DNA of 64,000 bases from Octopus vulgaris (GCA_951406725.2 OX597840.1:21514001-21578000); one strand, 5' to 3'; positions 13,088 through 63,365 are shown, counted from the stretch's first letter. A program made the numbers and translations. The notes: generated by a model from the sequence alone, not told the origin.

Positions 13088-13481
13088 CATACACACACAC
13101 ACATATATACATGAGTGGGGTATACACATACACAAGTACATACGCGGTAGTACAACCTAACATCATTTTTCGAATTTGCTTTGCAAGCCGAAGATGTACT
13201 TTGCCAGAGTCATGATGCCAATAAACACACACCCTGACTGTATTTGACCCAGTTTCAAGTCAGGTACAGCAAAAACTGAAGTGAGCAACAACCAGCGCGT
13301 GTTTACATTGGCAGTATCATCCTCCCAAAGATCAACTACACACACACACATACTCACACACACATACACATACATATATACACTTATATACATATATGTA
13401 CGCATGTATATATATATAATGTTTTAATTTGATCCAGTTAGTCACTTGTTCCTCTGAGTTTTACCTGTGGGTGCCCAGGTT

Positions 13482-13540
13482 CTTCATGACTTACCTGAAG
13501 ATCCTGTGCATTCACAGGCGAAACCTCGGGTAGCATGAGA
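13482..13540 (+). ncRNA. Hammerhead motif, partly degenerate
   Basis: CTGAAGA(13495-501)-t cctgtg catt cacagg c-GAAA(13520-23)-CC tcg G-GTA(13530-32)-gcatgaga, with tcatg/catga pairing in an interrupted helix I. AATAAA follows at 13554. Confidence 0.6.
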
Positions 13541-13732
13541 CTGACTTGACCAAAATAAAGTATATTATTATTGGTGCTTTTTTTCAGACAGTCAACACTA
13601 AATCTGTGTGAGGATATATAATATATATATATATATATATATAATTGAAATTTACAGAAAAACGAAAGACGAAGACAAGTATATGGACAGCAAGCAGGTG
13701 TATTAGCTTGACACTCGGGAAAGTGAGAAAGT

Positions 13733-13768
13733 CTTTTACGTTTCGAGCCTACGCTCTTCAACAGAAAG
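13733..13768 (-). ncRNA. Hammerhead-like variant motif in a TA/CA-flanked repeat
   Basis: Minus strand reads cttt-CTGTTGA-A-gagc gtag gctc-GAAACGTA-aaag: 4-bp helix II, ACGT palindromic helix III and an atypical core. A second copy of the same repeat lies on + at about 23365-23500 (motif 23392-23427). Confidence 0.45.
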
Positions 13769-13924
13769 GAATAAGAGAAAATAAACAGAGAGAGAATTAA
13801 AAAAAAACTTGTGGATTTAACGATCAAGCATGGCATCACACACACACACCCATGCAGTCATACAATGTGTGTGTGTGTGTGTGTATACATTTATACACTG
13901 TATGCACGATCACATTCATTGTGA

Positions 13925-13967
13925 TCTCGCCTGAAGATCGCAGTGGCGTGAAACTCGAGTCTCCAGA
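13925..13967 (+). ncRNA. Minimal hammerhead motif with perfectly palindromic helix III
   Basis: CTGAAGA(13931-37)-t cgc agtg gcg t-GAAA(13950-53)-CTCGA-GTC(13959-61). Helix III ACTCGAGT is self-complementary and helix I is weak (tct/aga). AATAAA at 13987 and TATTGAGCAC at 14020. Confidence 0.6.
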
Positions 13968-14555
13968 CAAACTTAGTTTCACTTTCAATAAAAAAGAAAT
14001 CCGTATCTTCCACAGCACGTATTGAGCACTCCAATCTCATTCGTCCGACATAAGGCAACATGCTAATTAATTACACACACACACACACACGTGTCTGTAG
14101 GGGGCTACATACATATATTCATACATACACACGCACCTACATATATGTACACACCCATCATCATCATCATACGTAACAACTAAGAATGCAGCAGCAACAG
14201 CCACTATGAAGTGAAATAAATGAAATAAAAAGTAGATAGATAGATAGATAGATAGATAGATATGTTTCTTTATTAGCCACACAGGGCTGCACACAGACGT
14301 TACAAATTACAAAGTAGAGCTTTTCTTTTGGGGGAGAAAAAACAAAGTGGGGTAGGTTTTCGATCAAAAGGGATCGTAAAAGGGAAAGAAAAGAAAAAAA
14401 AAACGATCAAGAAAAAAAAACGATCAATAGGGATCGTGTATCACAGAAATGTCATGATGTAAAGAGCAAAGGGGGAAACAGATAAGGTTTATCCGTGAAA
14501 AGAAAAGCCTACGGAAAAGACCACGGTAACCTCGGTCAATAATTAGTATCTATAG

Positions 14556-14645
<90 letters not shown>

Positions 14646-15429
14646 TGAAAGAGAGAAATAGTGAAAGTGAATGAGAGAAAAAGAAAGAGAAAACCAAAAG
14701 AATGCAGACGAAGAAAGTGTTAGTGCGAAAGAAAAGGAAGCCAACATGATGAGGCGTAGTGGGAGAGGAAACCAGCTTATAATATAGTTTTAGATATTTG
14801 ACAGATAAAGTTGATAAAAAGGGGGAAGTGTGGAGAAGATAAGAAGAGGGGGAAAAGACACAAACTACAATACAAATGGATCGCAGGAGAGAGTGGAGAG
14901 CCATGACAAGAGAAGTAGGAGAGAAAGGTTGATAAATTAATGTATGAAGAGAGAGGGAGAGAGAGAAAGACAGAGAGATAGTGATAGATAGGAGAGATAG
15001 GTAATTATAAACATTTAGAGAAAGAGAGAGAGTAGAGGGGTTTATATGCGAAAGAAAGAGAATGATGGGAAGGAGAGAGGGGTAACCAGAAAGATCTAGA
15101 TAGATAGAGAGATATAGGCAATGTGCAAGAGGAGGAGAGCGAGAAATTGAGAGAGTAATAGAAATGAGGGAGGGTTAATTGTAAGTGTCTAGATAAATAG
15201 ATATAGGTAGTGAGAGAGGAAGAGAGAGAAACAGGGTGACAGGAAAGAGAGAGAAAGAGCTATAAAGAACTAGATAGATAAATAGATATAGGCAGTGCGA
15301 GAGAGGGAGCGACAGAGCGAAGGAGAGAAATAGTAATAGAAAAGAGAGAGAAGTAGTTATAACTATCTAGATAGATAGAGAAGTATATGCAATGGGAGAG
15401 AGAGAGAGAGAGAGTGACAGTAATGGAAA

Positions 15430-16160
15430 GGAAATAGTAGTTATAACTATCTATCTAGAGAGACATAGGCGGTGCGACAGACAAAAAGAGCGACAGAGTA
15501 ATAGAAAGAAGAGGGGAATAGCTATAACTGTAGATAGAGAGAGAGTTATAAGGCAGTGCGAGAGAGAGAGCGGGAGAGACAGAGTAATAGAAAGGAGAGA
15601 GGAGTAGCTGTGAATATCTCGATAGACAGAGATATAGAGGCAGTGCGAGAGAGAGAGAGTGGGAGAGACAGAGTGAGAGAAAGGAGAGAGTGATAGCTGT
15701 GAATATCTCGATAGACAGAAATATAGAGGCGGTGCGAGAGAGAGAGCGGGAGAGACAGAGTAGCAGAAAGGACAGAGTGGTAGCTGTGAGTCTCTCGATA
15801 GACAGAGATATAGAGGCGGTGCGAGAGAGACAGAGTGAGAGATAGGAGTGAGTGGTAGCTGTGAATACCTCGATAGACAGAGAGGTATAGGCAGTGCGAC
15901 AGAGAGAGCGGGATAGACAGACTAACAGAAAGGAGAGAGTAGTAGCTGTGAATCTCTCGATAGACAGGGATATAGAAGCGGTGCGAGAGAGAGAGCGGAA
16001 GAGACAGAGTGAGAGAAAGGAGAGAGTGGTAACTGTGAATCGCTCGATAGACAGAGAGGTATAGGCAGTGCGAGAGAGACAGAGTGAGAGACAGGAGAGA
16101 GTGGTAGCTGTGAACCTCTCGATAGACCGGGATATAGAGGCGGTGCGAGAGAGAGAGCGA
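15430..16160. repeat. GA-rich satellite of 75-89 bp units immediately upstream of the CerS ATG
   Basis: The anchor CGATAGAC recurs at 15620, 15709, 15796, 15871, 15958, 16045 and 16120. Confidence 0.9.
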
Positions 16161-16212
16161 CGGTGAGTGAGCGAGGCGCGCGCGTGTGTGTGTGCGAGCG
16201 AGGGTGAACAAC

Positions 16213-16391
16213 ATGGACACGGATTATATTCTGCAGATTTTCTGGCATGAGAAATTCTGGTTACCTGTCGGTACATCGTGGACGGATCTGGAAAGCCACG
16301 AGAAGAATGTGTATTACCCGAGGGCAGCGGACATGTCTCTGGCAGTGCTGGTCGCCGTCGTCTTTCTGGCTTTCCGATACTGTTACGAGAG
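16213..16391 (+). CDS. CERS: First coding exon of a ceramide synthase (LAG1/TLC family, CerS5/6-like; invertebrate schlank-like)
   Basis: Translates MDTDYILQIFWHEKFWLPVGTSWTDLESHEKNVYYPRAADMSLAVLVAVVFLAFRYCYER, matching the CerS N-terminal pattern FWxExFWLPxxxxWxDL...YP...DL + TM helix + R..FER. It ends at a consensus donor AG|GTAAGT (intron starts 16392, phase 2), where I recall vertebrate CERS5/6 exon 1 also ends. No downstream exon was recognised. Paralog assignment is uncertain. Confidence 0.92.
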
Positions 16392-18925
16392 GTAAGTTGC
16401 GAGAGGTCCAGGCCTTTTCCTTCCCACCAAATAATCTCTCTGTCTCTGTCTCTGTCGTCCTCCTCCTTAGCTGCCTCGTGTCTCCATACATTCACATATA
16501 TACACACACACATACTATATACACACTGTACATTCATATATATATATAATTTATATATATCATATATATTACATATGTGTAGATGTATGTATAATATGTG
16601 TGTATAGACACATATATGTTTGTGTATATATTCTATGTGTGTGTGTGTGTATACATTGTATACCATGGTGACCACATTGTAGTGTTTCGTATATATACCT
16701 TATGTACCTCGGCGTCTCATAAATAGTATACACAACTTTTATATGTATATATATATGTGTGTATATAATATATATAAATATATATGTACATACATGTGCT
16801 TGTATGTGTATATATATATGTACATATATGTATATAAAGCACGTGTGTTTGTGAAGTATATATATGTAATACACATATATATATATATGTATGTATATAT
16901 ATATACACAATCAAACCTCATAATCACATCCTCGCACCTATATAATATATATATATGTATATATATACATATACACACACACATATATGTGTGTGTGTGT
17001 GTGTCCACACGTCTATGTCTGTGTATATGTAAATTGACTCAGTATATAACATGAAAGGATATTAAATTGACATTCTTTATTAGTAAATATATAAATAAAT
17101 ATGATCCACTTAGACACCTTATTATAACATTATATTTATTATATTGTGACACACGTACACACAGATTACTTCATATTAAACTGGAGCGCCCAACGCCATG
17201 GCTCTCACTCCTCCTTACCTTTCTAAGTCACACATCACCACGCTGCTATTACTAAATTTCTAGTCACACCATTGACACTAGTATGCTTACTTCGTTACTG
17301 GTCTCTGCAATTGTACCACATTTCAGGATCCACCCCTCAATCGCTACACACAACTATTTTTCTAGACACTCCACAGGCACCCTGATAAACCGTTTTACTA
17401 ACCAACCCGCTCTCATCGGGGCTCGGGACTTGTTACACTCGCTACACCTTGATACAACAAGAAACTGTCATACCACACCATTTTTTTTTCTTTCACAATC
17501 ATACGACGGTAGAGTCATTAACACACATACACGTGCTCGCATCCCCCACATATATATATATATATATGTATATATATGAAACGAGAAAAGCCTTCTAGTG
17601 TGTTTAAGTACTGTGATGTCTATATCTAAGTATATATTAACTGTGTGGTGTGTATATATATACATATATATACGTTATGGGTCTGCACTAATTATTTTAT
17701 TCAACCTAGTTCGAGTTCTTTTCTTGTCCATCATTTCCTGTTCGTCTCCCGTACACATGTTATCATTTAATCAGATGTTCATGTTTTCGATCGTCGCATT
17801 TCTCTCTACACATTCATATTTTTCTATAATAAAATTCCTAGCAGCGGCCGGCATACTTGAGTAACTTTATACCAAAGTTTTTTTCTTTTGCTTTTCTAAT
17901 AAGAATTCATAAACAGCTCACACACAACATATAACCTATTTTATTACAAGCCATAAATGTTTCCAAAGAGGCACGAGGCCACATTTTGGGGGCGAGGCAA
18001 CACTTAATTTAGATCGATCTCTGTTCGTGATTCTATCGACTCCCCCCCATAAATGGTGAAAGATAGGGTTTTGTGGAAATTTGAACTTTGGATGTAATTA
18101 AAAACTGATTGACCGACATAGTGCCCGATCTTAAATAGAAATGGAAAAAAGAAAGAAAACACTTTCACATAATCAATGTAATGATTTCTGCCGTGTGTGA
18201 CAGCATTCGATTAAATCGACCACAACACTTTACTGGTATTTATTTTATGGACACCAAGACAAGATGTTAGACAACGTTGTCACCGGCAGGATTTGAACTC
18301 TGAAGTGGACACAAAGGGACGTAACTAACTTCTCTGTGACATTTTTGCCCGTTGCTCTACCGACTCCGCCGCTTCCGCAGCCGTTAATAAGGATATTAAT
18401 CATCATCATCGTCCTGTCTACTGAATGCACAAGGCCTGATACTTTGGGGGAGGGGAATAGTCGATTACATCGAACCCCAGTGTGTCACTGGTACTTAATC
18501 TGTCGACCCCGAATTCTGTAGGTACAAAACCAGAAGTGTGGGTGAGTGTTAAGTGGATTACATCGGCGTCAGTGCTCGACTGGTTCTTTATTTTACCGAC
18601 CCCGAATGGATAAAAGGTAAAGTTGTCGACCTCGACGGAATTCGAACTCGGAACGTGAAACCGGAAGGAATTCCGCTAAGCACTTTGTCCGGTATGCTAA
18701 CGATTCTACTGACTCATACGATTAATAGTAATTCAAATATGGGGACACAAGGCTCGACATTGAAAGTGGGGTTAACTGATCCCATCAACTCCACTGGTTC
18801 TGTATTTTATCGACCCCTCCCCAACAAATAAATGAAAAGCAAAGTTCACCTCAGCAAGATTTGAACCTAGAATCTTAAAGAGCCGGAAGAAATGCTGTTG
18901 AACATTTTTGTCCGACACTCTAAAC

Positions 18926-22405: not shown

Positions 22406-22473
<68 letters not shown>

Positions 22474-22965
22474 ACAGGCTTCTTTCAGTTTCCATCCACT
22501 AAATCCTCTCACAAGGCTTTGGTTGGCCTGAGGCTATAGTAGAAGACACGTGCCCAAGGTGTCACACAGTGGGACTGAACCCAAAACCAAGTCTTACCAC
22601 CCAGCCATGCTTGTGCTTACAAAGCTTATTTATTGCTATATCTTGATGCAATGGACATCCAAGATGGCAAATAAAATCTCATCAAACCGGTTTCCATTTC
22701 AAATTAAAAGTGCATCAACGCATCAACACCTCCATCACTACAGCAACTGACAAAAGTACAAACACCAGGACTTGTGGTTTCTTAACTACTTTAGACTCAT
22801 CATCATCGTCAGTGTGTATATATGTATATATATATATATATAAAAGCAATAAAGTTAAAGTCTGGTCATAAAGTGACGAATGGTTTTGCGTTCACAAAAG
22901 CTGCAGCTCATCAGACACCATACAACTTTCCGTATCCGAGAGATGAAGAGTTAAATTTGTCTTTG

Positions 22966-24022: not shown

Positions 24023-24068
<46 letters not shown>

Positions 24069-27345: not shown

Positions 27346-27957
27346 ACAAGAGACATGCATGCACACACACACACACACAAAAATGAAACTAAGCCAAGAT
27401 TTAGTGAGAGAGATTGTAAGAACTGACAAAGCAGAACTTGAGCTGCATGTATAAAACCCCTGGAAATGAATTCAGAGTTAGAAATTCCCATCGAAGTTAT
27501 GAATAAATATCCTTTACCTTTTTACTTGTTTCAGTCATTAGACTGTGGCCATGCTGGGGCATTCTCCTGAAGAATTTTTAGCTGACTGAATTGATCTCAT
27601 TATTTATTTATTTTTTATTTTTTCTCGAAGCCTTGTACTTATTCTAGTGGTCTCTTTTGCAGAACTGCTAAGTTACAGGGATGTAAACAAACCAACTCCA
27701 GCTGCCAAGCAGTGGAGGGGTCACAGGCACACACACACATAACACACTCCTTTCAGTTTCTGTCTACCAAATCCACTCACAAGGTTTTGGTCAGCCCAAG
27801 GCTACAGTAGAAGACACTTGCCCAAGGTGCCACGCAGTGGGACTGAACCCGGAACCGTGTGGTTGGGAAGTAAGCTTCTTACCACGCAGCCACATGGTAA
27901 TATATAAACTGTTCAAGCATAAAATAAAAAACAATTATTTTGTAATAATTGACTATA

Positions 27958-28348
27958 GGCGCAGGAGTGGCTGTGTGGTAAGTAGCTTGCTAACCAACCA
28001 CATGGTTTCGGGTTCTTGGGCAAGTGTCTTCTGCTATAGCCCCGGGCCGACCAAAGCCTTGTGAGTGGATTTGGTAGACGGAAACTGAAAGAAGCCTGTC
28101 GTATATATGTATATATATATGTATGTGTATGTATATGTTTGTGTGTCTGTGTTTGTCCCTCTAGCATTGCTTGACAACCGATGCTGGTGTGTTTACGTCC
28201 CCGTCACTTAGCGGTTCAGCAAAAGAGACCAATAGAATAAGTACTGGGCTTACAAAGAATAAGTCCCGGGGTCGATTTGCTCGATTAAAGGCGGTGCTCC
28301 AGCATGGCCGCAGTCAAATGACTGAAACAAGTAAAAGAGTTAAGAGTA
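27958..28348 (+). mobile_element. SINE family A copy
   Basis: Near full length, with a small deletion in the head. Confidence 0.87.
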
Positions 28349-28509
28349 ACATCTGTGTACTTCTGTGTTAGCAGTGCACTCAAATCACATGCTATGGTTA
28401 TCTTTATTGATTTTCTACAGAAATTATTGCCAGCACTGATTTTGTTAAATCTTTACAGAGATTTATCCTTTGCTTAAGTGTGTGTACATTTTTTGGCAGA
28501 CTCTGTACA

Positions 28510-28889
28510 TACTCTTTTTACTTGTTTCAGTCATTTGACTGCGGCCATGCTGGAGCACCGCCTTTAATCGAGCAACTCGACCCCAGGACTTATTCTTTGT
28601 AAGCCCAGTACTTATTCTATCGGTCTCCTTTGCCGAACCGCTAAGTGACGGGGACGTAAACACACCAGCATCGGTTGTCAAGCAATGCTACGGGGACAAA
28701 CACACACATACATATATATACATATATACGACAGGCTTCTTTCAGTTTCCGTCTACCAAATCCACTCACAAGGCATTGGTCGGCCCGGGGCTATAGCAGA
28801 AGACACTTGCCCAAGATGCCACGCAGTGGGACTGAACCTGGAACCATGTGGTTGGTTAGCAAGCTACTTACCACACAGCCACTCCTGCG
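28510..28889 (-). mobile_element. SINE family A copy, tail-to-tail with 27958-28348
   Basis: Full-length reverse complement. Confidence 0.87.
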
Positions 28890-31800
28890 TACGTGGTTGT
28901 TGTAAATGATTGTCCCTGTCATACAGGCAGTGTCATTCACCTCCAGTATTCTGTGGGAACATGTCAGGCCATGGGGAAGCAGCAGGTGAAGGTTGGCAAC
29001 AGGAAGGGCACCCAGCCATAGAAAACCTGCACCAGTAAACTCTCTGTCCAACCAAGCAAGCATTTAAAAGTGGATATTAAATTGATTATGATAATGATGA
29101 TGAATGATATCCGATACTTGTTGAGTAAATTTAAGATAGCTATCAGCAATGGCTTCGAAGTTCCTTGTATCTTGGACAAGGACAAAAAGTCAGCTGAGAA
29201 ATAAATGGTGACATCTCTAAGTTATTTGAACTGAAAACAATGGCAACACGGCTGTTGACAGAGAGCTTCTGTGAACAGGTCAAAGTTCAAGTGAGCTAAA
29301 AATCACATGGTTATAGGTGGAAAATTTTTTATTTCATTTCGTATTTTAATGTCATTAACATAAATTCTCAAATTTACATTTTTTTTTTTTTTTACATTTA
29401 CTCTTTTACTCGTTTCAGTCATCTGACTACGGCCATGCTGGAGCACCGCCTTTAATTGAGCAAATCGACTCCAGGACAAAAAATAAGTCCTGGGGTCGAT
29501 TTGCTTGACTAAAGGCGGTGCTCCAGCATGGCCGTAGTCAGATGACTGAAACAAGTAAAAGAGTAAATGTCACCATTTATTTCTCAGCTGACTTTTTGTC
29601 CTTGTCCAAGATACAAGGAACTTCGAAGCCATTGCTGATAGCTATCTTAAATCTACTCAACACGTAATATCATTCTGATATCATTCATCATCATCATCAT
29701 AATCAATTTAATATCCACTTTTAAATGCTTGCTTGGTTGGACAGAGAGTTTACTGGTGCAGGTTTTCTATGGCTCCAGCATGGCCACAGTCAAATGACTG
29801 AAACAAGTAAAAGAGTAAAGAGTATTTAATATCCATTTTCCATGCTGACACAGGTTAGATGGTTTGATAGGAGCTGGTCAGGCCGGGATCCGCACTAGCC
29901 CCCACTTGTCTGTTTTGGCATGGCTTCTACAGCTGGATGCCCTCCCTAATGCCAGTGTATTTACAGAATGAACTGTGTTCTGTTTACATGGAACCAGTAC
30001 TTTTTATGTGAATATTTAAGGAGAATGTTGAGTAAAGAAAGAGCTTTTGACATCTGTTACTGGAGGAAGGACAGATGTTGCACTTAACTTTTTCCCTATT
30101 CATGTAGCTGAAGAATTTCTTAGTCTTTCTTCTTATTAAACTTAGTTTCTAGCCATAATTTTTAGTTTCATTTGGCAGGTTGTGTTTTTCTCTTTTCTTT
30201 TCATTTTTTTTATAATCTTAGTGATTTAGTCTCCAATAAGGCTTGAGACCACCAAAGCACAAGGTACTGCAAAGAAGAAAAAAAGGGATTAATTTTAAGC
30301 TTTTTCTAAAGATTTTCTTATTTACAAATAAAATGCTAAATTATGACAACTTTGGAGATTTTTCAAAACTATTTAACCCTCTAACTGGTATTAAATTTCA
30401 TGATTATCCTAGTAATGATGTTTAATCATCATCGTTTAACGTCCGCTTTCCATGCTAGCATGGGTTGGATGATTTTGACTGAAGACTGGTGAACCAGATG
30501 GCTGCACCAGGCTCCAGTCTTGATTTGGCAGAGTTTCTACAGCTGGATGCCCTTCCTAACACCAACCACTCCGAGAGTGTAGTGGGTGCTATTTATGTGC
30601 CACCAGCACAGGGGCCAGTCAGGCGGTACTGGCAACGACCTCGCTTGAATCCTTTTACACATGCCACCGGCACAGGTGCCAGTAAGGCGACTTTGGTAAC
30701 GATCACGCTTGAATGGTGCCCTTTTACGTGCCACCTTCACGGAAGCCAGTTGGCTGCTCTGGCAACGATCACGCTTGGATGGTGCTCTTAGCACCCTACT
30801 AGCACGGGGCTCGAGTGCCAGTAAGGCGACGCTGGTAACGATCACACTTGAATGGTGCCTTATATGTGTCACCGGCAGGGAAGCCGGTTAGCTGCTCTGT
30901 CAACGATATCTACCAAAAAATAGAATTGCTATTTTCTCCAAGTCTCGTTGCTTCAATAAACTTGACATATTTCAACAAAAATTAGATTCAAACCTGACGT
31001 CCCTCAAAAGAGAGAGATTGGTAGATGAATAAACTGATTTCCCCAATTAAGGGTAATAAAATTTCGTGTGGATCTGATTTCCATATTAAAAGGGTTAAGC
31101 TGTTAGGCTTTGAACATTATGTGTAAATGATACGAGAGTTTTATAAAATAAATTAAAATATGCATTAACAGAAATTAAGTCAGGAAATAAGAAATTTTAC
31201 TCCTTGCCTTGTGAATCTGGGTCTACGACATTACATCAGCTTTATGAAAATTAAGAGATAGTATTACAAGCAAATGGATTGAAAATGTAGTAATTAACTG
31301 AGAAAATATGGCCAGAATAGTTGGTACTTCCTACGAAAGGTATAATGTTAATGTCATTTATTAAAAAAAGTGGGTCTTCTGTAAAAAACAAGGCTCAGTA
31401 CATTTCTATAATTGTGAGTGTTTTCAAACATAATCTTTTCTCTTTTACTTGTTTCTTATTTCTTTATTGCCCACAAGGGGTTAAACATAGAGTAAACATA
31501 GAGGGGACAGACAGAGGGGTTAAGTCGATTACATCGACCCCAGTGTGTAGCTGGTACTTAAATTATTGACCCCAAAAGGATGAAAAGCAAAGTCAACCTC
31601 AGTGGAATTTGAACTCAGAACGTAACAGCAGACAAAAAACTGCTAAGCATTTCGCCCGGTGTGCTTAACGCTTCTGCCAGCTTGCCACCTTCTTTTACTT
31701 GTTTCTGTCATAAGGTTGCGGCCATGCTGGGGCATCACCTTGAAGAAATTTTCGTCGAATGAACTGACCCCAGTATTTTGTATTTTTAAGCCTGGTGATT

Positions 31801-37545: not shown

Positions 37546-40500
37546 TGTCATTCGTTTCCAATATTCTGCAGAAATAAGGCAGTGAGATGACAAAATTGTT
37601 TGCATGCTGGGCAGAATGCCTGGTCAGTTTTCATCTGTCTTTATAGTCTGGATTCAAATACTGCTGGGGTCGACTTTGCCTTTCGTCCTTTTGGGATTGA
37701 TAAAGTAAGGACCAGTTGAGCACTGGTGCCACATGAAAAGGACTGGTGCCTGTGTCACGTAAAAAGCACCATTGCTGGTTTCACATAAAAAACCACTGGT
37801 GCTGGTGCCACGTAAAAAAGCAGTGGTACTGGTGCCACGTAAAAGTGCTGGTGCCTTGTAAAAAGAACTGGTGCTGGTGCCATGTAAAATGCATCAGTGC
37901 TGGTGCCACATAAAAAGCACCCAGTACACTCTGTAAAGTGGTTGATGTTAGGAAGGGCATTCAACCAGAGAAACCAGGTCAAAACAGACAATGGAATCTG
38001 GTGGGACTCCTGGCTTTGCCGTTTCCTGTCAAACTGTGGAATGCAAGCCAACATGGAAAACAGATATTAAATGATGATGATGATGATGATGAAAAAAACT
38101 CTTTTTAGACACATTTTAAAAGAAGTAAAAAAAAAAGTATGTTTTGTCAAGATTAGAAGAATACAAGTGAGATGTTTTGTTATCTGTGACCAACTGATGA
38201 TGTGCTAAGGTTCAATATATTTTCATTGGAGGTTAACATGGGCTGGTGTGGGGTCATTGATCTATGCCTCTCTCTAAAACAGTGGTTCCTCAACTTTTTG
38301 GGGTTGCCACCCCCTTGACACCCAGGCCACATTCCTAGTGCCCCACCCCCTTATTGGAGTATGGCCTTGCTGGGGCACTGCCTTAAAGTGTTTAGTTGAA
38401 TAAATCAACCCCTGCTTACTTTTTTTTATTTTTTGAAGTCTAATAATTATTATGTCAGTCACTTTTGCCAAACTGCTAAGTTATGGGAAACCAGTAACAT
38501 TTGTCAAGCAATGTCAGAGGGGGCAAACATAAAGACACACATATATGATGGACTTCCACACAGTTTCCTTCTACCAAATTCACTCACAAGGCGTTTGCCA
38601 TTGGTTGGCCCAGAGCTATAGTAAAAGACACTTGCCCCAGATGCAGCACAGTGGGGTTGAACCTGAAACTATACGGTTGCAAAGTGAGCTTTTTAACCAC
38701 ACAACCATGCCTACAGGGTTTTTTTTTTCCTTTTTATTAGAAAACATGGGGAGGGGATCTTTGTTATACACCAACCAACCAGTGGGCAGGAGCACCGAGG
38801 GGCCACAAAATGTTGAAACCCACAGTTGTAGGATATCAATTATGCAACAACTGAACCAGTATGTGTTGTAATAATAACAGTGTTGTATGATTTTCACCCT
38901 TGGGTAGCAACTGTTATTTCCTATGTGCTTACCCTCTAGGAAGTATGAAAAATGGCTCATATTTCCTTCAAATTTTGCTTTTGTTACATTTATTCAAACT
39001 CCAAAGAATCCCTCTCTCAACACATGGTTATGATGCTCCCCCTCTACTCCTGATCAGAGATGCACATATTATCAGCCACTAAGGGATATGCTCAAGTGGT
39101 TAAGGTCAAGCAATGGACAAGAAACTCTCTGGTATTGAGCAGAATATTTGCTATAATGATATTTCTGCTTCAGCAACTCAGCTCTGAATCCGTGTGAAAT
39201 GTAATGGAAAATTGTTCAGTTTCAAAACATTGATGTCCAAGTCACAAAAGCAGAGTCTGAAGGAAATAGTAATCTTTTCCTTTGATTTCTAGATAGAAGC
39301 AAATAGGAAATATAACACTTGACAAAAGGAAAAAAAACAAAGTTTGCTACACAAATATAATTAGACCTGTGGACTCGGCCCACAAACACCTCCACCAACA
39401 GCTACTAGTCCTCTATTTGTTCTTTGACTAATAAGGCATTTGTTATATTAATTGAAAGCACACAATAAACATGGTTGTCAGGTTATTTAATAGCAGTGTA
39501 ATCTGTTTAAGTTTTATGTTTAAATGCTGTAGCTATGAGAAAGTGGATTTTTTTAAGAAAAATATTATTTATGAAAGGAGTTCATAAACAAGCAAACATA
39601 GGAGAAAATTGAAAGAAAAGAAAAGAGAGAGAGAAAGAGCGAATTGTTTTAATTGAAAGGTTATAAAGTAAAGACAGTTAAACAAACAAACTACTATAAA
39701 AACACTATGACAAAAAGAAGGAAAAAGAAAAAACATCTGGAATGTCTTTCTATACCTGTTCAAAAGTCAGAAGTATGTCAGAAATAAAACTGAAAATTTA
39801 AACACTTAACGTAACTTAACAAATGACCATTTAAAAAAAAACATTTTTTAAATAAAATAGAATATTTAAAAATCAGTTTTTTAAATATTTGTTGGTGGGG
39901 TGGGGGCAAGTGTGGCTGTGGGGTAAGGAGTTTGCTTCTTAATAGCATGCTCTCTGTATTAATCCCACTGTGTGACCTCCTAGGCAACTGTCTTCTGCTT
40001 AAGCCCTGGGTTAACTAAGGGCTTGTGAGAGGATTTCAGAAAATGAAAGAAGCCTGTTGTGTGTGTGTGTGTGTAAAACACCCACAAAAACCTTGTATCT
40101 ATAGAACTGGGATTGCATCAAAAACCTAAATCCAAAATTTATCCCTATAACAAGACACCTGTTTCTGCCTCTGTATTTCTCTGTCACCCTCTAACCTTTC
40201 ATCATCTGACACAAGATCCCCTCCACCAATGCCCCTACCTCCTTTCAAAATTCTTTGTCTTGTGAGTTATGTGGTGACCCTGCCAATGCTGGGGCCATGT
40301 AAAAAACATCCAATTCACACTAAAATGGTTGGCATTTGGAAGGGCATCCAGCTGTAAAAACCTTGCCAAAATTGACCTCACCTGTGCTAGTGCCACATGA
40401 AAATCACTGAATTCACTCTGCAGTGGTTGGTGTTAGGAAGGGCATCCAGCCATAAAAACCCACCCAGACACAGCAGCCTGGGGTAGTCTTCTACCTGGAT

Positions 40501-43718: not shown

Positions 43719-46283
43719 ATGAAGGCGCTATCTTCTATCCCTACCCCAAGTACCACTGCTGCACTCCTTCCAACTTCCTGCTGGAGGGTCCAGTCAAAGT
43801 GTTTGGGATTTTGTGTGGGAGATGTGTTGGGTGAACGGAGACTGGTGGTCCTGGATGGAAAGGTGTGTGCAATTAGATAGTTCACAAGTGCTTTTATTTG
43901 TTTATCTTATTTTGTTTTTGTTTTCTGGTTTAGTTAGAAAAGGAAGAGCAGGGTCTTCCTCATCATTTAACTTCTGTTTCCCATGCTGTCATGGGTTGGA
44001 CAGTGTAACAAGGAACTGATAAGAAGCGCATCCTACCATAGAAACTGAGCCAAAACAGATTATGGAACCTGTTATCTTTTATTTGTTTCAGTCTTTGGAT
44101 TGCAGCCATGCTGGAGCACTGCCTTGCAGGTTTTTAGTCTAACAAATTAACCACAGGACTTATTTTCAAGTCTGGTACTTATTCTATCGGTCTCTTTTGC
44201 TGATCCACTAAATTACAAGGATGAAATCAAACCAACTCTGGTTGTCAAGCAGCGGTAGGGGACAAACACAAGTGGTTGTGTGGTTAGAAGTTTGTTTGCC
44301 AGCCACATGGTTCTGGTTCAGTCCTGTTGCATGGTACCTTGGCCAAGTGCCTTCTATTAAGGCCACCAGGCTGATCAAAGACTTGGAGTGGATTTGGCAG
44401 TTGGAAACGCCCACACGTGTGTGTGTGTGTGTTATTGTTATGCAAGCTGTGTCTGTTGTACAAGCTGTGTCCTTCATTCATAATCTTCTCTGAAAAAAAC
44501 CACACCCAGTTGTGAGTAAATATTACCTTATTTGGAAACAGGTGAGGGTTGGTGACGGGAAGAGCATTCAACTAAAGAAAATCTGCCTCAACAAAATTTT
44601 GTTGAACTCATGCAAGCGCATGGAAAAGCGGACATGAAAATAATCAAGATACATCCATGGCAGGCTTCCACACAGTTTCTGTCTGCTAAATCTAAATCCA
44701 CTCAAACAGCATTGGTTGGTGCTAGGCCGCAATAGAAAAAAAAACAAACTTGCCTTTAGTGTGCCATGCAGTGGGTTTGAACCCAGAACTATGTGGTTGT
44801 GAAGCAAGCTTTTTAACCACATAGCTATTCTGTGCTTGTGAAATTCCTTCATCTGTTAAAAAAAAAACTTTTTAATATATTTTTAATTTTTGTTATCAGC
44901 AACTTATTGCTGACATCTGTTATTAATGTGTTTTACCATGTGGTACCTGCTTGGCAGAGTGTGTGTGTGTGTGTGTGTGTGTATCCATGTATTTGTTATC
45001 AAAGAATATCTTACTTTTGGTGGGGTTTTTTTCCATGTGGAGATGATTAATGAAATTAAAAATTCCTTTGGCTCTGATATTTAGAAGTATGAATTTCTTA
45101 TGCCCAGGTATGGCTGTGTGGTCTTGGGTTCTGTCCCATTGTGCAGCATCTTGGACATGGGTCTTCTGCTATAGCCCCAGGTCGACCAAGGCCTTATGAG
45201 TGAACTTGGTCAATGGAAACTGAAAGAAGCCTATCGTGTGTATGAATGTATGTTGTGGAAAGGTGGCGAACTGGCAGAAACGTTAGCACACCGGACGAAA
45301 TGCTTAGCGGTATTTCGTCTGCCGTTACGTTCTGAGTTCAAATTCCACCGAGGTCGACTTTGCCTTTCATCCTTTTGGGGTTGATAAAGTACCAGTTTCG
45401 TACTGGGGTCGATGTAATCCCTTTGTCTGTCCTTGTTTGTCCCCCTCTGTTTTGCCCCTTGTGGGCAATAAGGAAACAGAATGTATGTTAGCGGGGAGAG
45501 GGAAGGTGCATGACTTAGTGGTTAGGGTATTCTGCTCACAACTGAAAGGTTGTGAGTTCAATTCCCAGCTATGCATTATGTCCTTGAGCAAGATCTTTTA
45601 TTTTCATGTTGCGCTCATCCACTCAGCTGGCAAAATTGAGTTGCACCTGTATTTCAGAAAGGTCGGCCTTGTCACATTCTGTGTCTCACTGAATTTCCCT
45701 GAGAACTATATTAAGGGTACATGTGTCTGTGAGGTGCTCAGCCACCTATACGTCAATTTCACCAGTAGGCTGTTCCATTGATTGGATCAACCGGAACCTT
45801 CACTGTCATCATCATCATCACCATTTAATGTCCACCTTCCCTGCTGGCTTGAGTTAAAGGGTTTGACAGGAGCCAGCACCAGACTTCTGTGTTGGTTTTG
45901 GCAGAGTTTTTACAGCTGGATGCACCTCCTAACACCAACCACCCCACAGCATGGACTGAGTGCTTTTTATATGGCACCAGCACAGGTGAGGTCAATTTTG
46001 GCCTGATTTTTACACAGCACTGGCACAGGTACTTTTTATGTGGTCCCAGCACTTAAGAGCCTGGAGAGGTTTGAAAGGGACGAGCCTGTATGCAATGACA
46101 ACCACTCGATTTCTGGGGTGCTGGCATCGTATGCACTTCCCCTCTGATCTGTCATCGCGACCCGTTCCCGTCGGGCCAGTAGGAACGCAGCATCCGCAGG
46201 TCACAGATAAGCATCCTGCTGCCATCGCTCCACGAAAGCACAGGCATTGCTAACTGACAGAGACAGGCTAATGCACCTCGCTC

Positions 46284-46500: not shown

Positions 46501-46503
46501 AAA

Positions 46504-47422: not shown

Positions 47423-47506
47423 GTCAGGATGGCCGAGCGGTCTAAGGCGCCAGACTCAAGTTCTGGTCCACGAATGTGGGCGTGGGTTCGTATCCCACTT
47501 CTGACA
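47423..47506 (+). tRNA. tRNA-Leu(CAA), intronless, with variant T-loop (A58>T)
   Basis: GTCAGGA-TGGCCGAGCGGTCTAAGGC-G-CCAGA-CTCAAGT-TCTGG-long variable arm-GTGGG-TTCGTAT-CCCAC-TTCTGAC-A. The cloverleaf stems pair, anticodon CAA is at 47457-47459, and a TTTT run (possible Pol III terminator) lies at 47514-47517. Confidence 0.88.
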
Positions 47507-50213: not shown

Positions 50214-50260
<47 letters not shown>

Positions 50261-50669
50261 GAGATAGGGGTTGAAAATTCAACCCACCATGGGATAATAT
50301 ATATCCAATATACTGCCAGATAGGTACCCAACAAGATTAATACATAGATGTTAAAAATTGTCAAACAATCAGTTCATCTATTGTATTATATGGGTAAAAT
50401 ATATATAAAATATATATATATATAAATATATATATAGAGACAAAACCACTATTTTGTAAAACAAACAAGGAAAGACTTAATCAATACATAAAATTTTAAA
50501 TATATATATATATATTATTTATTTTATAGAAGGAGTTCTACAGGACTAGAACTGTTTCATTCAAAACAGTTCTAGTCCTGTAGAAGCTCCTTCTATAAAA
50601 TAAATTAATTTACTCTGCTATGTATTGAGTACCTTATTTACTGTGGTTAACCCCGAATCAACCCGGGAC

Positions 50670-50700
<31 letters not shown>

Positions 50701-55530: not shown

Positions 55531-55589
55531 TGTGGTTGATGCCAGTGCCACCTGACTGTGTTTTTACTTTGGCTGCCATCAGACTAGCT

Positions 55590-55820
55590 ATACCACTCCT
55601 TAGGCTGCCGTTGACCTCACTGTGCCGACCTTGCTGTGCCTCTCTTTCAGCTGCCATCGGCCTTGTTGTGCCTCTCCTTCGACTGCCTTTGGCCTTGCTG
55701 CGCCTCTCCTTTGCCCGCCGTCAGCCTTGCTGCGCCTCTCCTTTGACTGCCATCAGTTTTGCTGCGCCTCTCCTTTGACTGCCATCAGCCTCGCTGCCCT
55801 TCTCTTTCAGCTGCCTCACT
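55590..55820. repeat. Degenerate tandem repeat of about 32 bp (GCCTCTCCTTTGACTGCCATCAG..TTGCTGC)
   Basis: About six to seven units are visible. Confidence 0.75.
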
Positions 55821-57341: not shown

Positions 57342-57728
57342 GTGGAGGCGCAATGGCCCAGTGGTTAGGGCAGCGGACTTGCAGTCATAGGATCGCGGTT
57401 TCGATTCCCAGGCCGGGCGTTGTGAGTGTTTATTGAGCGAAAACACCTAAAGCTCCACGAGGCTCCGGCAGGGGATGGTGGTGATCCCTGTTGTACTCTT
57501 TCACCACAACTTTCTCTCACTCTTACTTCCTGTTTCTGTTGTACCTGTATTTCAAAGGGCCGGCCTTGTCACTCTCTGTGTCACGCTGAATATCCCTGAG
57601 AACTACGTTGAGGGTACACGTGTCTGTGGAGTGCTCAGCCACTTACACGTTAATTTCACGAGCAGGCTGTTCCGTTGATTCGGATCAACCGGAACCCTCG
57701 TCGTCGTAACCGACGGAGTGCTTCCCCC
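57342..57728 (+). mobile_element. Full-length tRNA-derived SINE (family C) with 12-bp TSD
   Basis: A-box TGGCCCAGTGG and B-box-like GGTTTCGATTCC; TSD ATTAGTCAGGAA at 57330-57341 and 57729-57740. Related copies at about 35495-35810 (-), 45500-45800 (+) and 60500-60790 (+). Confidence 0.88.
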
Positions 57729-60700
57729 ATTAGTCAGGAACTTGGGTTGATCTTAATCAATTTCAATGGAGTTAGGGGACCCTACTGTCTTTGTTGATTA
57801 GGGTTATATTTATTGTAAGGGTCTTAAATTGCTGGAATTGTTTAAAGGTCAGTTATTTCCTGCTTCATTATTCATAATTACATTAATTACAAAATAACCT
57901 TCCATCTCTAAGCAGTTCTTTTACTCCTTCACTTGTTTCAATCATTTGACTGCAGCCATGCTGGAGCACTGCCTTAAAGGGTTTTAGTTGAAGAAATTTA
58001 CCCCTGGACTTATTCTGTCAGTATCTTCTGCTGAACCGCTAAGTTATAGGGATGTAAACATATCAATATTGGTTGTCAAGTGATGTTGGTGGCGGGGGGG
58101 ACAAACACAGACATAAAGACTCACTCACACATGCACACACACACACGGCAAGCTTCTTTCAGTTTCTGTCTACTAAATCCACCCACAAGGCTTTGGTCAG
58201 CCCGAGGCTTTCGGAGAAAACACTTGCCCAAGGTGCCACACACTGGGATTGAACCTGGAACCATGTGGTTGGGAAGCAAGCTTCTTACCACACAGCCACC
58301 AAATATATATGCAAACAATTGTTTGTATATTTATTTGTAATACGTCCAAGCAGGTTTGGACACAGAAATATGATGGTTGCTGTAATTACGTCGTAGAAGA
58401 ACAGGTTTTTTTTCCAATACCAGTGTATTCATAAAGATTGTTTAACCATCTGTGTATCATAGTTCATACGTAGACACTGGATGGTGATGAGCTGGCAGAA
58501 TTGTTGCTGCGCTTAGTGACATTCCGTCCGTCTTTGTTCTGAGTTCAAATTCCACCAAGGTCAGCTTTGCCTTTCATCCTTTCGGGGTTGATAAAATAAA
58601 TATCAGTTGAGCACTTGGATCAATGTAATCAACTCACCCCCACCCTGCCCAAATTGCTGGCCATGTACCAGAATTTGAAATCAATATATACACACTTGAT
58701 AGGCCAAGTTACTACAATATTTGTACTGAGATAACGTCTCCCATGAAATACCAGAAAGAAATGAAAAATTATCCCATCAGTGACCAGTGAGAGCACCAGA
58801 TGCTTTTCTTTTTTATGCCTTTTTAATAGAGCATATTCATTATGCCTTTTTCGTTCACAGCTAGCCATATGTAGGGACAAGAATTCACCATTGTCTCCAA
58901 TAAATATATTATGATATATAGACTGCTTCAAATATGCATACTGGTTTTTTATTCAACTGAACAGCTATTTGCAACATCAGTGGATGTTTTGTACACTTAT
59001 ATCACAGTTGAGAAATTCTTGTCTGAACATGTCGTTGGCTGTGTGAAGGCACATGGCTTAGTAGTCAGGGTGGAAACGGGTGAGTGTTGGCAACAGGGAG
59101 GGCACCTGGCTGTAGAAAATTTGCCTCAACAAATTCCATCCCACTCATAATCGTAAGATTGTGAGTTCCATTCCTGGGCCGGACAATGCTTTGTGTCCAA
59201 GCAAAATACTTCATTTTACATTGCTTCAGTCCATTCAGCTGGCAAAAATGAGTAATCCTGCAAAGGGCTAGCATCCTATCCAGGTAGGGAATATATACGC
59301 CAGAGAAACAAGGAAAGCTGCCCTATACTCCCTTACAGAGCAATAGGGGCTAACCATGTAGCCGGCTGTGAGTCTATGCCTTTGAAAAGACCCTAAAAGT
59401 CTGAAATGCATCTGGCACTCTCACTGGATGCTGCTGGGATGAATTCTTATCTTTCTCCGATATTTATTATTCTTTTTAACACAGCAATCCATGAGAGGTG
59501 TTATCTCAGGACAAATACTTCAGTGAATGGCCCATCGACAGTGTATGGTACATTGGTGGCTATTTAATTAAAAACACTGCCTCAGTTGCAATCACTGGAT
59601 CTGTAAATACATTTTCACACTGAACACAATTACATTTTGCTGTGACTGTATAGTAAGACGTTTGCTTTCCAACCATATGGTTCTGGGTTCAGTCCTACTG
59701 TATGGCACCTTGGGCCATGCAGCAGTTTTCTGATCTAGTCCTCAGCTGATCAAAGCCTTGTGATTTGGTCAGCCTTGGATTTCGTTGATAGAACCGAGAA
59801 GATGCCTGTTGTGTGTGTATGCACATGCACACACGAATATATACATGTACACACACATACATGTATACACACACATACATGTATACACACACATACATGT
59901 ATACACACACATACATGTATACACACTCATACGTATGTGTATATCTTTGTATTTGTTCCCCACTACCATTTCACAACAGGTGCTGGTTTGTTTACATCCT
60001 CGCAACTCAGCAAAGAGAGACTAATAGAATAAGTTCCAGGCTTTAATAAAAAGACATAGTGTATTCTGGGGCCAACTTGTTTTACTAAACCCTTCAAAAC
60101 AACAGTGCCCCAGCATGGCCACAGTTCAGTGACTGAAACAAGTAAAAGATAAAAACATTCAAAATATTATTTTAACTCCATTTTCCTTTGTACACTCCCA
60201 GAAAAAGAAGTCTTGTGCTCTGACATCTGAGATATTCAATATTCTGTTAGTCTCGGCTGGTGTTTTGGTGTTTTTGTCAACAAAACTGAAGAATTGTGAC
60301 ATGTCTTCTACATAATTCCATCAATAGTCAGCACCAGTTTTTGTTTATTTGTCAGAAATTAGAACGTCCTTCCTTTCTCTCTCTTGTGACAAACATCACA
60401 AGGGAGTATTTTCGGTGAGTGTGTGGATGGGAGATATCTCACCATTTTAACAGGAGGTCATTTACCTCATCTTTGTTTTCTTTTACCTTCAGCCATAGTG
60501 AAGGCCTGTGGTTTAATGGTCAGAGGTATTTCATCCCCGGCAACACATAGTGTCCTTGAGCAAGACACTTTATTCCACATTGCTCCAGTCCACTCAGCTG
60601 GAAGAAATGAGTCGTATCAGTATTTGAAAGGACCAGCCTTTGTTGTATTCTGTGTCACACTGAATCTCTCTGAGAACTGCATTAAGGGTTATATGTGTCT

Positions 60701-60861
60701 GTGGAGGGCTCAGCCACTTGCATGTTAATTTCACGAGCAGGCTGTCCCATTGATCAGATCACTTGAAACCCTTGTCATAACCAACAGAGTGCCAGTAGCC
60801 TTCAGGCATCACATTCATATTTCTGTTAATCTGGTAAGTATACGACAATGGCAGTTCATCA

Positions 60862-60999
60862 TTAACCTTTAGCACACTAAAGGCAAATCATGTTGCCGTA
60901 TGAGTTTTCTCCCCTCTCAATGCAACACAATGTGCCTGCAGCAACAGGGGAGAAAACTCATGTGGTAACATGCTTTGCCTTCAACATGCTAAAGGTTAA
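60862..60999. mobile_element. Small foldback MITE flanked by TTAA
   Basis: TTAACCTTTAGCA..AAGGCAAATCATGTTGCC.TATGAGTTTTCTCCCCT / AGGGGAGAAAACTCAT.TGGTAACATGCTTTGCCTT..TGCTAAAGGTTAA; arms of about 55 bp. Confidence 0.75.
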
Positions 61000-61299
61000 T
61001 AAATTGGATTGTATGTGTTGATTGGTTATTGTGTTGTTCAAAATATTTGTTGCTGTTACTGGTACAAGGCCTGAAAGTTTGTTGGGGTAGCCTAGACAAT
61101 TACATCAATTGGTACTCAACACATTAATCGCCACAGCCTGTTACTGGAACTTAACCAGTGACGCCACATATTTTGTGCGATCGCACTGCACGCTGTTTAA
61201 TTACAAGGGAATGTAATTTCTTTGCATTTTTACAATATTTCTGAATTAAACTTCAATATTTAGCACTGAATAGACAAGGACTAGTTTGGTATCTACAGG

Positions 61300-62120
61300 A
61301 ACTCCAACCACTCACAGCTGTTATCTGAAATCTAGTAAGAGGTATCACTAGAAGAATTAGCAAACAGTAGATTATTCAAGAGGGCCACACCTCTTTATGA
61401 GGCTCTAACAAGGCGTGGCTTTGGTGATATGTTAATGCACATAGAAAATCATACCCCAAAGAGAGTTAGAAAGAAAAAGATAATCTGATTTAATCCTCCA
61501 TACAATCTAGATGTCTCCACAAATATAGGTAGCTGTTTCTTGATCCTAACTCACTTTTCCCAAACACCTACAAGTACCACAAACTTTTTGTTGCCCATAA
61601 CATAAAGATTATCTATTAATGACTAGACAATATTGTGTTCTATCATTGAATGTTACAACAGAAAAGAAAATCCTGTATTTACAGAAACAGCACTGCTTTA
61701 AGCTAATAGCACAGAAACCACTTCCACTGTCCACTGGAGATTCTGCCTCTCAAAAGCTGTTGTTTCTGTAGCCATCTCACTCTCTTCAATGATATTCTAA
61801 TAATCTATGTTGGCTTAACAGCTAATGACTTCAAAGAAAGATTTATGCAACACATGCACTCTTTCAGATACAGAACAGGGAAAACTCTACCAGCTAGCAG
61901 TCTTCCTCAGCATTGTCGCCATAAAAAAAAAACACACATTGTTAATGAACTTGATTGACTGCCAACACACAAGAAAGACCACCTTAATTCTAGTTGACCT
62001 ATATGCAGCAGTCATATAGATAAGATTTGCTTGCTCAAAGTAAGATTATTCCCTCTGCTTACCACCACTGCTGACACCTTGCAATAATTACATGAAATAC
62101 AGTTACACACAACACCAACT
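61300..62120 (+). mobile_element. Decayed Penelope-like retroelement ORF (RT thumb, linker, GIY-YIG endonuclease)
   Basis: Frameshifted fragments in the expected order: SNH, NLVRGITRRIS, FKRATPLYEALTRRGF, RKKKII*FNPPYNLDVSTNIGSCFL..HF (from 61468), PNTYKYHKLF..HNIKIIY, CPL..CLSKAVV, IYVGLTANDFKERFMQHMHSFR (61803-61868). These match typical PLE motifs IIWFNPPY..V.TNIG.FL and YIGLT..FK.R..H..SF. Boundaries are approximate. Confidence 0.82.
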
Positions 62121-62951
62121 GACATGATCTGTTTTCATCTGATATTACTGGCACACTAATAACTACTTACTATTTGGAACAACACCTGGTGTCGTCAAAT
62201 TTCACAGGTGGCACACCAGCTGATACCATTGAACTGACCTGCCTACCATGCAGAACTAAATAGACCATCTGTTGTCATAGTTTTAGTATATAGTGAGTTT
62301 AGTAACTCTTGTTCTATTCACATCATGGTTTCACATTGGTGTTCAAGTGGTAAGTCACAACACATTTCAACAGTTGTTGGCTTTCTCAACCACGACAGAA
62401 ATTTATTGAAGCTCCAAGTCCCATGGACACCAGGATGAAACCCCGAAGCAAAGGTGATGACATTATATCAAACTTTTATACAGGCCCAGGTATGGCTGTG
62501 TGGTTAAGAAGCTTGCTTCCTAACCATGGGGTTTTTGGTTCAGTTCCATTGTGCAGCACCCTGGGCAAATGTCTTCTACTTCAGCCTTGTGTGTGTGTGT
62601 GTATTGTTTGGCCCTTATCACTACTTGACAACCTGTGTTGGTTTGTTCACATCCCTGTGTCTTAGTGGTCGAGTAAAAGAGACCAACAGTATAAGTCTCA
62701 GGCTTAAAACTCTACCAGATCAGATTGGTGCCTGGTGCAGCCATCTGGTTCGCCAGTCCTCAGTCAAAATCGTCCAACCCATGCCAGCTTGGAAAGCGGA
62801 TGTTAAACGATGGTGATGATGATGTACAGAAAGAGAAAGATAAGCAGCCAACATCTCTACTTAACTCATTCATAATTTGTGTGTGTGTGTGTGTGACTTT
62901 GTGATATGTGATACATATGTATGTCAGATATTATAAAGGTGTGTGTATGTA

Positions 62952-62986
<35 letters not shown>

Positions 62987-63012
62987 TTTATTTTAAGCAG
63001 CAGAAAAATCAA

Positions 63013-63061
63013 CAAAATCTGTTACTCTGAGTTTCTCGTTGCTGTTCATCAGACAGTTTTG
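63013..63061 (-). ncRNA. Inverted copy of the 63177 hammerhead motif
   Basis: Reverse complement reads caaaactgt-CTGATGA-acagcaacga-GAAACTCAGAGTA-acagattttg; one helix II substitution relative to the + copy. Confidence 0.6.
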
Positions 63062-63176
63062 CTAGAATGGAACATATATATTAATTCAATCTATACTCTT
63101 ACAAACGCTACACCTTTATATATAATATAGCGTTTGTAATAGTATAGATTGAATTAATATATATGTTCCATTCTAG

Positions 63177-63226
63177 CAAAAACTGTCTGATGAACGGCAA
63201 CGAGAAACTCAGAGTAACAGATTTTG
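63177..63226 (+). ncRNA. Minimal type I hammerhead motif with palindromic helix III
   Basis: caaaaactgt-CTGATGA(63187-93)-a cg GCAA cg a-GAAA(63204-07)-CTC a GA-GTA(63214-16)-acagattttg. Helix I pairs 9 of 10 bp, helix III is ACTC-A-GAGT (dimer type), and position 10.1/11.1 is a non-canonical A.A. Confidence 0.7.
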
Positions 63227-63326
63227 TTGATTTTTCTGCTGCTTAAAATAAAGCATATTACTCTACCACTGGTATTTGAGTACTCTTTTTTCCACCTTGT
63301 TTCACATTTATGTGTTTACTCCGGTC

Positions 63327-63365
<39 letters not shown>

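Follow-up and report, generated by a model that had tools for sequence, protein, structure and literature searches.

The stretch of DNA analyzed here, referred to as the window, is a 64-kb segment of the Octopus vulgaris genome (GCA_951406725.2, OX597840.1:21514001-21578000; 64,000 nucleotides, one strand) in which four short islands, at 13.5, 14.0, 50.6, and 63.2 kb, carry whole, broken, or half hammerhead ribozymes. We propose that these islands are 5′-truncated, often fold-back ends of Hydra-type Penelope-like elements (PLEs) inserted in (TA)n tracts, and that the element ends fall a few bases upstream of two hairpins, H1 and H2, which are likely docking sites for the reverse transcriptase (RT)/endonuclease; we give this reading a probability of roughly two in three. 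How PLEs acquire their one-sided tail and their inverted, 5′-truncated partner is a standing question. A hairpin of 20 to 30 nt, with rules for its spacing and for the pairing of a short end with a long one, allows the tail question to be tested directly, with exact mutants of an intact young element. Among retroelement enzymes, those of PLEs are the nearest relatives of telomerase.

Four islands and their genomic families

Searches of the 2.8-Gb assembly, which includes the window, showed that each island is a member of a dispersed genomic family; the families of the 63.2-, 50.6-, 14.0-, and 13.5-kb islands are called A, B, C, and D, respectively. The initial annotation had proposed that such islands share a hammerhead core followed by AATAAA and then by TATT(T)GAGYAC. 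A pattern check found cores at 13495, 13931, and 63187, AATAAA at 13554, 13987, 50599, and 63247, and the tail motif at 14020, 50623, and 63273, confirming the whole arrangement for the 14.0- and 63.2-kb islands. At 50.6 kb, AATAAA and the tail motif follow a core (50564) that is the 3′ half of a hammerhead only, as had been described, and at 13.5 kb the core and AATAAA are present, with the H1 hairpin largely deleted from the window copy. A further, supposedly decayed island (13188/13220/13241) did not hold up: it has no GAAA box, the profiles of the old families C and D give no match there, and a genome search with it returned relatives for the 13272-13330 part only. These relatives, at two loci (L292 and L293; 81 to 82% identity), are unrelated to the hammerhead families. 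We also set aside the lone tail motifs reported at 5648, ~17855, and 24246, which have no hairpin arm, profile match, or meaningful match among the fetched loci.

The hammerhead core pattern CTGANGA..GAAAC is denser than in shuffled sequence, as anticipated, with seven matches in the window against 0.78 expected, a number reached in none of 100 shuffles. Four of the seven belong to these elements, two near 20.0-20.1 kb have no stems or lie inside the head of a short interspersed nuclear element (SINE), and the seventh is at 22777. TATTGAGYAC is weakly above chance in the window (2 against 0.44 expected; 9 of 100 shuffles), and for TTTGAGYAC three matches were found where 1.8 were expected, a count attained in 26 of 100 shuffles. 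Genome-wide, GTATTGAGYACT has 2731 matches against 326 for the reversed control; upstream of 30 sites sampled by the motif first, we found an exact core in 2, a relaxed core in 4, AATAAA in 4, and a TCTRC arm in 7 (backgrounds of 0.25%, 3.3%, 3.6%, and 2.8%, respectively). The linear GTATTGAGYACT motif is a poor marker, most of its matches being decayed or due to chance. An Rfam scan of the window listed no hammerhead among 150 of 194 rows, which held microsatellite-driven microRNA noise and tRNAs.

The 63.2-kb island is a family A fold-back. Its inverted arm (62986-63118, minus strand) has no tail, carries a hammerhead core at 63052, the partner of the core at 63187, and finishes at the short end, AATAAAG followed by (TA)n. 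The sense arm (63128-63328, plus strand) is the 3′ 200 bp of a pseudo-long terminal repeat (pLTR), with its long end adjoining (TA)n. On this strand the short-end site AATAAAG (63247-63253) lies 6 nt upstream of H1 (63260-63284), which consists of an ACTC/GAGT stem, a 3-nt bulge, and a TACC/GGTA stem, then ACT, and includes TATTTGAGTAC; the stretch of the arm directly after AATAAAG measures 73 nt (63254-63326). The insertion is flanked by (TA)n at 62955-62985 on the left and 63327-63353 on the right. The sense arm is 99.5% identical to the pLTR of a full element (L031), 40 of 40 scored genome matches show 99 to 100% identity, and an exact pattern matches 3539 times genome-wide (control, 0). 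Five of seven long family A loci (L031, L032, L034, L035, and L037) hold an open frame of 727 aa (709 aa from the first Met) between pLTR copies, and the 3′ untranslated region (UTR) is 1.1 kb. All 150 scored matches to the endonuclease are 99 to 100% identical, and the 727-aa frame, counted by eye, is present in 25 of them. Family A is a young autonomous Hydra-type PLE.

The 50.6-kb island, a fold-back of family B, joins an inverted arm (50517-50563, minus strand), which has the short end and only the 3′ half of the hammerhead, to a sense arm (50564-50673, plus strand) comprising the half hammerhead, AATAAA at 50599, H1 at 50612-50630, and a long end that adjoins (TA)n. This sense arm is 98% identical to the pLTR of a full element (L201), organized as pLTR, a 712-aa open reading frame (ORF; 722-aa frame), and pLTR. 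The ORF was located by walking upstream from the pLTR through a TATG-rich UTR, and pLTR sequence was found in 12 of 12 loci selected by endonuclease match. Pairs of family B motifs 2.5 to 6 kb apart on one contig (C1) had been considered as pLTR-ORF-pLTR units and were rejected, none containing a Hydra ORF. A TT-bulge hairpin pattern gave 5926 genome matches (1 for the control), and family B accounts for most of the first 100. Among 26 family B loci sampled by position, 21 are fold-backs of 177 to 446 bp, and all 26 have (TA)n on the right. The full parents of families A and B, whose proteins share 43% identity, have thousands of genomic copies. The family B 3′ UTR (2.5 to 3.2 kb; L196, L197, L198, and L201) is largely low-complexity TA/TG/TATG sequence that is copied with the element; therefore, part of the genome's microsatellite-like DNA may have been spread by family B retrotransposons.

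Placement in the Hydra clade

Between their pLTRs, families A and B have a single short ORF encoding RT followed C-terminally by a GIY-YIG endonuclease (~710 aa). Pfam returned no RT or GIY-YIG match for the ORFs, and a PDB sequence search of the ORF returned nothing meaningful; the domain assignments rest on motifs and on a by-eye match to published Hydra alignments. The Hydra clade, as described by Craig et al. (2021; PMC8557442), is characterized by RWK or RWR, DKT, a CxCx5C linker, the lack of CCHH, and CxxC and CxH motifs. Family A has RWK and DKT, and family B has RWR, DKT, and the CxCx5C linker. We aligned 40 proteins (2 from this genome and 38 of 120 listed), which led to 78 related metagenome loci. 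RWK or RWR together with DKT or DKS were present in 40 of 40 aligned proteins, as were CxxC and CxH beside a conserved E and N; the endonuclease has no CCHH, with none of 34 carrying two Cys in the interval from the GIY box to the YIG box. Both families also have a hammerhead in the pLTR and insert in (TA)n. In the family A linker, Phe replaces the second Cys of CxCx5C at 30 of 30 loci (L098-L127), retrieved with a query that itself bears Phe, and 3 of these 30 loci hold an additional copy with the canonical Cys. The (TA)n targeting appears unaffected in the Phe-bearing lineage.

Judged from sequence, the islands of families A and B are, and those of families C and D probably are, 5′-truncated, mostly fold-back pLTR ends of Hydra-clade PLEs and not retrozymes, and the elements are new members of this known clade. 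The suggestion that PLE pLTRs are involved is supported by two islands, A and B, which were traced to autonomous Hydra-type PLEs with a pLTR-ORF-pLTR layout. The microsatellite targeting proposed with it is supported for (TA)n, which flanks both of these young families; (CA)n flanks were noted at old copies, by eye only. PMC8557442 already describes the clade together with its hammerheads and (TA)n targeting, and the supplement of that paper includes an Octopus member, the (TA)n preference, and hammerheads much like those described here. The clade, which includes Hydra-1_Obim of Octopus bimaculoides, has the same ORF layout, pLTR hammerhead, and (TA)n target, as well as the inverted 5′-truncated partner and one-sided tail. 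By eye, families A and B are unlike Hydra-1_Obim; they are young, with thousands of copies, and their tails measure 70 to 73 bp, versus 30 to 40 in the published Hydra elements.

The initial annotation had also entertained retrozyme-like elements. On such a reading, the islands would be retrozymes or SINE-like nonautonomous elements amplifying via circular RNA produced by self-cleavage, and AATAAA would signal polyadenylation. Type I hammerheads, a size of 150 to 350 bp, and a high copy number would fit this origin, as would the missing ORF link for families C and D, and retrozymes themselves derive from PLE pLTRs according to bioRxiv 10.64898/2026.07.22.740005. The non-LTR retrozymes of that report share the type I hammerhead, the small size, and the pLTR ancestry with the present islands; they are tandem monomers, whereas each island is one insertion, either truncated or folded back, of a kind that has autonomous parents. 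Tandem monomers with a hammerhead were not seen here, the 5′ breaks vary between copies, whose lengths range from ~180 bp to full length, and only 11 of the 26 position-sampled family B copies keep the whole ribozyme. Moreover, no poly(A) lies downstream, and AATAAA occurs in 7 of 31 families (see below). We therefore regard a retrozyme origin as very improbable and retain truncated Hydra-type PLE ends as the preferred reading.

A hairpin present twice per pLTR

TATT(T)GAGYAC forms the 3′ side of a hairpin with a bulge (GCTC…GAGCACT), of which each pLTR has two: H1 lies downstream of the hammerhead and H2 40 to 100 nt upstream of the start codon. The 78 metagenome loci contain 36 hammerhead families, 31 with enough sequence to test, and H1 was found 41 to 93 nt past the core in 24 of these 31. 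Of 16 copies extending into an ORF, 14 have a second hairpin 44 to 74 nt beyond H1, and 42 of 51 ORFs have a hairpin upstream, against a background of 18 of 1680 windows for the pattern. Published coral, sea cucumber, and copepod consensus sequences contain the same hairpins on inspection by eye. AATAAA, which marks the short end in this genome, was found in only 7 of the 31 families and does not qualify as a clade-wide signal. A short CTC…GAGTAG stem-loop was also seen between the hammerhead and H1 at five metagenome loci (L239, L243, L247, L250, and L255).

The three inner base pairs, which the search pattern left unconstrained, covary. Among 42 nonredundant metagenome Hydra-type hairpins, and with a 2-nt bulge, they are Watson-Crick in 40/42, 29/40, and 21/32 cases, versus permutation means of 20.7, 12.2, and 8.2 (0/2000 permutations each); pairs were counted from the anchors, the loops being of unequal length. 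All four pair types occur at the second and third inner pairs, and bulge sizes of 0, 1, 3, and 4 gave no covariation signal among the 42 hairpins. The covariation holds in H1 alone and is weaker in H2. Family A H1 folds as a bulged stem-loop (-5.9 kcal/mol; z, -2.06). An alternative in which the tail GAGT pairs with stem III of the hammerhead was rejected, since stem III differs in family B while the hairpin is the same.

Rfam returned 0 matches at the gathering score for the hairpins in 12 loci, and we found no description of the hairpin pair in the accessible literature, with subscription papers, Repbase notes, and figure supplements outside reach; a duplicated hairpin obeying such rules of spacing and asymmetry appears to be undescribed. 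As a DNA signature, it could serve to locate Hydra-type remnants in which no ORF survives.

Element ends and their position relative to the hairpins

In the fold-back islands at 63.2, 50.6, and 13.5 kb, the inverted arm ends right past AATAAA and the sense arm runs ~70 bp farther. Family A ends lie past AATAAAG (short) or past CCGGT(C) (long), and (TA)n comes next in each case. In family A, 58 of 58 non-ORF ends, and in family B, 94 of 95 ends, lie no more than 10 nt 5′ of one of the two hairpins, and the H1-H2 spacing, 73 nt in family A and 70 nt in family B, equals the respective tail length. Of 17 ends that could be defined on metagenome contigs, 14 are placed -1 to 11 nt from a hairpin (null, 15%; p 1.5e-9); these ends were mapped on pairs from the same contig, an earlier mapping having been swamped by seeds in TA runs. 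Of the 34 head-to-head insertions within the first 100 family A matches listed, 32 join one short and one long end (p 3.5e-8). Contigs from four runs, whose type was guessed, show loose (TA)n ends at the same two sites and are uninformative on transcription or RNA ends. The earlier suggestion that the 3′ motif may serve RT/endonuclease recognition gains support from position and covariation, with the amendment that the motif is a two-armed hairpin present twice and not a linear signal.

Two other accounts of the ends were weighed. The GCTC…GAGCACT boxes could act as DNA, either as an endonuclease site in the integrated pLTR or as a single-stranded DNA hairpin, such that the ends reflect cutting and not RT initiation. 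The near-palindromic GAGYACTC box agrees with this account, and the Drosophila virilis Penelope endonuclease required tail sequence to recognize and cut plasmid DNA, as cited in PMC11167929. However, recognition of double-stranded DNA needs no covarying stems around a fixed bulge, H2 never lies within the terminal copies that it delimits, and the non-Watson-Crick positions (G-T in 8 and A-C in 3) weakly favor the sense strand, so that recognition as DNA seems unlikely to us.

Alternatively, the hairpins might bind protein or serve some other role, in translation, packaging, or ribozyme folding, with the ends lying nearby only through TA-like microhomology. The spacers upstream of the hairpins often start with TATA, ATAT, or CATA, and the placement of H2 ahead of the start codon would suit a different function. 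Against this, other AT-rich patches of the pLTR are unused, the tail length matches the hairpin spacing in both young families, and the one-short-one-long rule needs a coupling that microhomology alone does not provide; in addition, PMC11167929 reports that initiation by the Poseidon enzyme involves no homology with the cut DNA. This account, too, is unlikely in our view, and we favor hairpins that would position the RT/endonuclease.

A number of observations nevertheless weigh against such docking sites. Many family A and B loci were chosen by queries that hold the long end or H1. In the metagenome set, 3 of the 17 ends lie far from any hairpin, and 11 further copies extend past the edge of their contig. 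Because the 6-nt spacer is rich in A and T, exact ends are ambiguous by 1 to 5 nt, and TA microhomology could set them. Thirty of 64 family A clusters in the first 100 listed matches are single matches; the dimer model described below does not explain them without a second, ORF-side priming or an unmatched partner. The first inner pair is nearly invariant in H2 (18/19 C-G; 91/2000 permutations), and the permutation test ignores relatedness. The outer GCTC/GAGC stem served as the search anchor, so the evidence for its pairing comes from a few compensatory changes noted by eye (GCAC/GTGC in family B H2, and Hydra-1_Crog). Folding is weak: family B H1 has the outer stem only, and the family C window copy is unfolded. 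Seven of the 31 families have no match to the H1 pattern; in three of these, a TA run lies no more than 100 nt from the ribozyme. Hydra-1_Obim has no clear GAGCACT hairpin by eye. Finally, tblastn of the 1.5-kb flanks of 40 family C and D loci gave no Hydra ORF match.

A proposed dimer model for integration

We lean toward a model in which a duplicated RNA hairpin, shared across phyla, sets both RT starts at a fixed distance. A protein dimer would dock on one read-through RNA consisting of the ORF 3′ UTR, hammerhead, H1, and H2, with one subunit per hairpin. The endonucleases would nick both strands of a TA tract, and each nick would prime cDNA ~6 nt upstream of its hairpin, so that a single RNA serves both (TA)n strands. 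Both cDNAs would stop early, anneal via a short self-complementary sequence, and be filled in, yielding an inverted repeat with one arm longer by the H1-H2 distance, i.e., the PLE tail. Fold-backs would then be the normal product of integration. Many family B fold-back centers lie at an AGCT palindrome. A solo tailed copy would keep H1 only; therefore, full mobility would need a tandem arrangement.

The model is reminiscent of what the accessible text of PMC11167929 (Frangieh et al., 2024) reports for the Poseidon PLE, whose protein nicks and extends both strands and is predicted to be dimeric, and whose RT starts at two internal stem-loop sites that delimit the tail, hammerhead cleavage being dispensable. 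Shared with Poseidon_Ac are thus the two tail-bounding RT starts, the nicking and extension of both strands, the AT-rich target, and a hammerhead dispensable in vitro; unlike the present elements, Poseidon_Ac belongs to another clade, its starts lie in an AC-rich stem-loop within the ORF, and a repeated conserved hairpin or a spacing rule is not reported in that text.

Parallels also exist outside PLEs. Stem-loops at the 3′ end of long and short interspersed nuclear elements recruit RT, and L1 twin priming uses two primers on one RNA to give an inversion. Here, the hairpin would instead lie 3′ of the start and is duplicated, and both primings would occur at fixed internal sites.

The hammerhead ribozyme

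The sequence at 63183-63220 (plus strand) is modeled as a complete minimal type I hammerhead and is a candidate ribozyme, with a stem I of 4 bp, a stem II of 2 bp, a near-palindromic stem III, and a predicted cut after 63216. It is intact, and the Hydra-2_Amil hammerhead published in PMC8557442 agrees with it in stems I and III. The lowest-energy predicted fold of this copy differs from the hammerhead fold. The other three ribozyme copies in the window (families B, C, and D) are broken or half, and family-level folds exist for all three.

The minimal type I hammerheads of metazoan PLEs described in the available text of PMC4209133 (Cervera and De la Pena, 2014) have the same short stems, palindromic helix III, and extra base after position 9. 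They are reported to cleave poorly and as dimers, and are likewise mostly solo or in opposite-strand pairs 100 to 700 bp apart, with low activity expected; that text describes no downstream element in its hammerhead loci, unlike H1 here. Hammerhead cleavage was considered as the cause of 5′ truncation and rejected: family B sense arms begin 20 to 260 nt upstream of the predicted cut, and 0 of the 26 loci break at the cut site. We infer that the hammerhead would not set the element ends.

Older families and a Hydra-type ORF remnant

The 14.0-kb island is a family C pLTR end (13925-14062, plus strand) with a core at 13931, whose stem I is broken in this copy, AATAAA at 13987, and a decayed H1 at ~14008-14030. 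Its relatives are 73 to 89% identical, and a profile built without the window copy scores that copy at E 1e-35 and family A at E 0.004. The 13.5-kb island is a family D fold-back (13411-13601) made of an inverted arm at 13411-13486 and a sense arm at 13485-13601, the latter with the core at 13495 and AATAAA at 13554. Relatives of family D are 69 to 86% identical, and its profile scores the window copy at E 2e-26 and family A at E 0.0005. The putative assignment of families C and D to Hydra-clade PLEs is drawn from hammerhead and H1 similarity.

A decayed Hydra-type ORF remnant spanning thumb to endonuclease was detected by tblastn at 61342-61871 (plus strand; 28 to 38% identity to family A). 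It contains stops and frameshifts, with no hammerhead downstream by eye. Family A was also observed within a few kilobases of family B or other Hydra-type insertions at L162 and at ~2.76 and ~6.58 Mb on contig C1, comparable to the 13.4-14.1 kb region of the window. Such close spacing suggests shared TA-tract hot spots.

Other features of the window

Apart from these elements, the window contains a tRNA with a CAA anticodon (Leu) at 47423-47506 (plus strand; Rfam, 53.8 bits) and a weaker tRNA-like match at 45508-45575. Inverted pairs of opposed SINE copies, without hammerheads, lie at 28128-28724, 29115-29666, 9769-10205, and 27731-28110, and one opposed-SINE pair is nested in another repeat. 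Tandem arrays are found at 15322-16159 (unit of ~87 bp), 3858-4133 (22/44), 55629-55816 (32), and 37723-37921 (26-27 bp).

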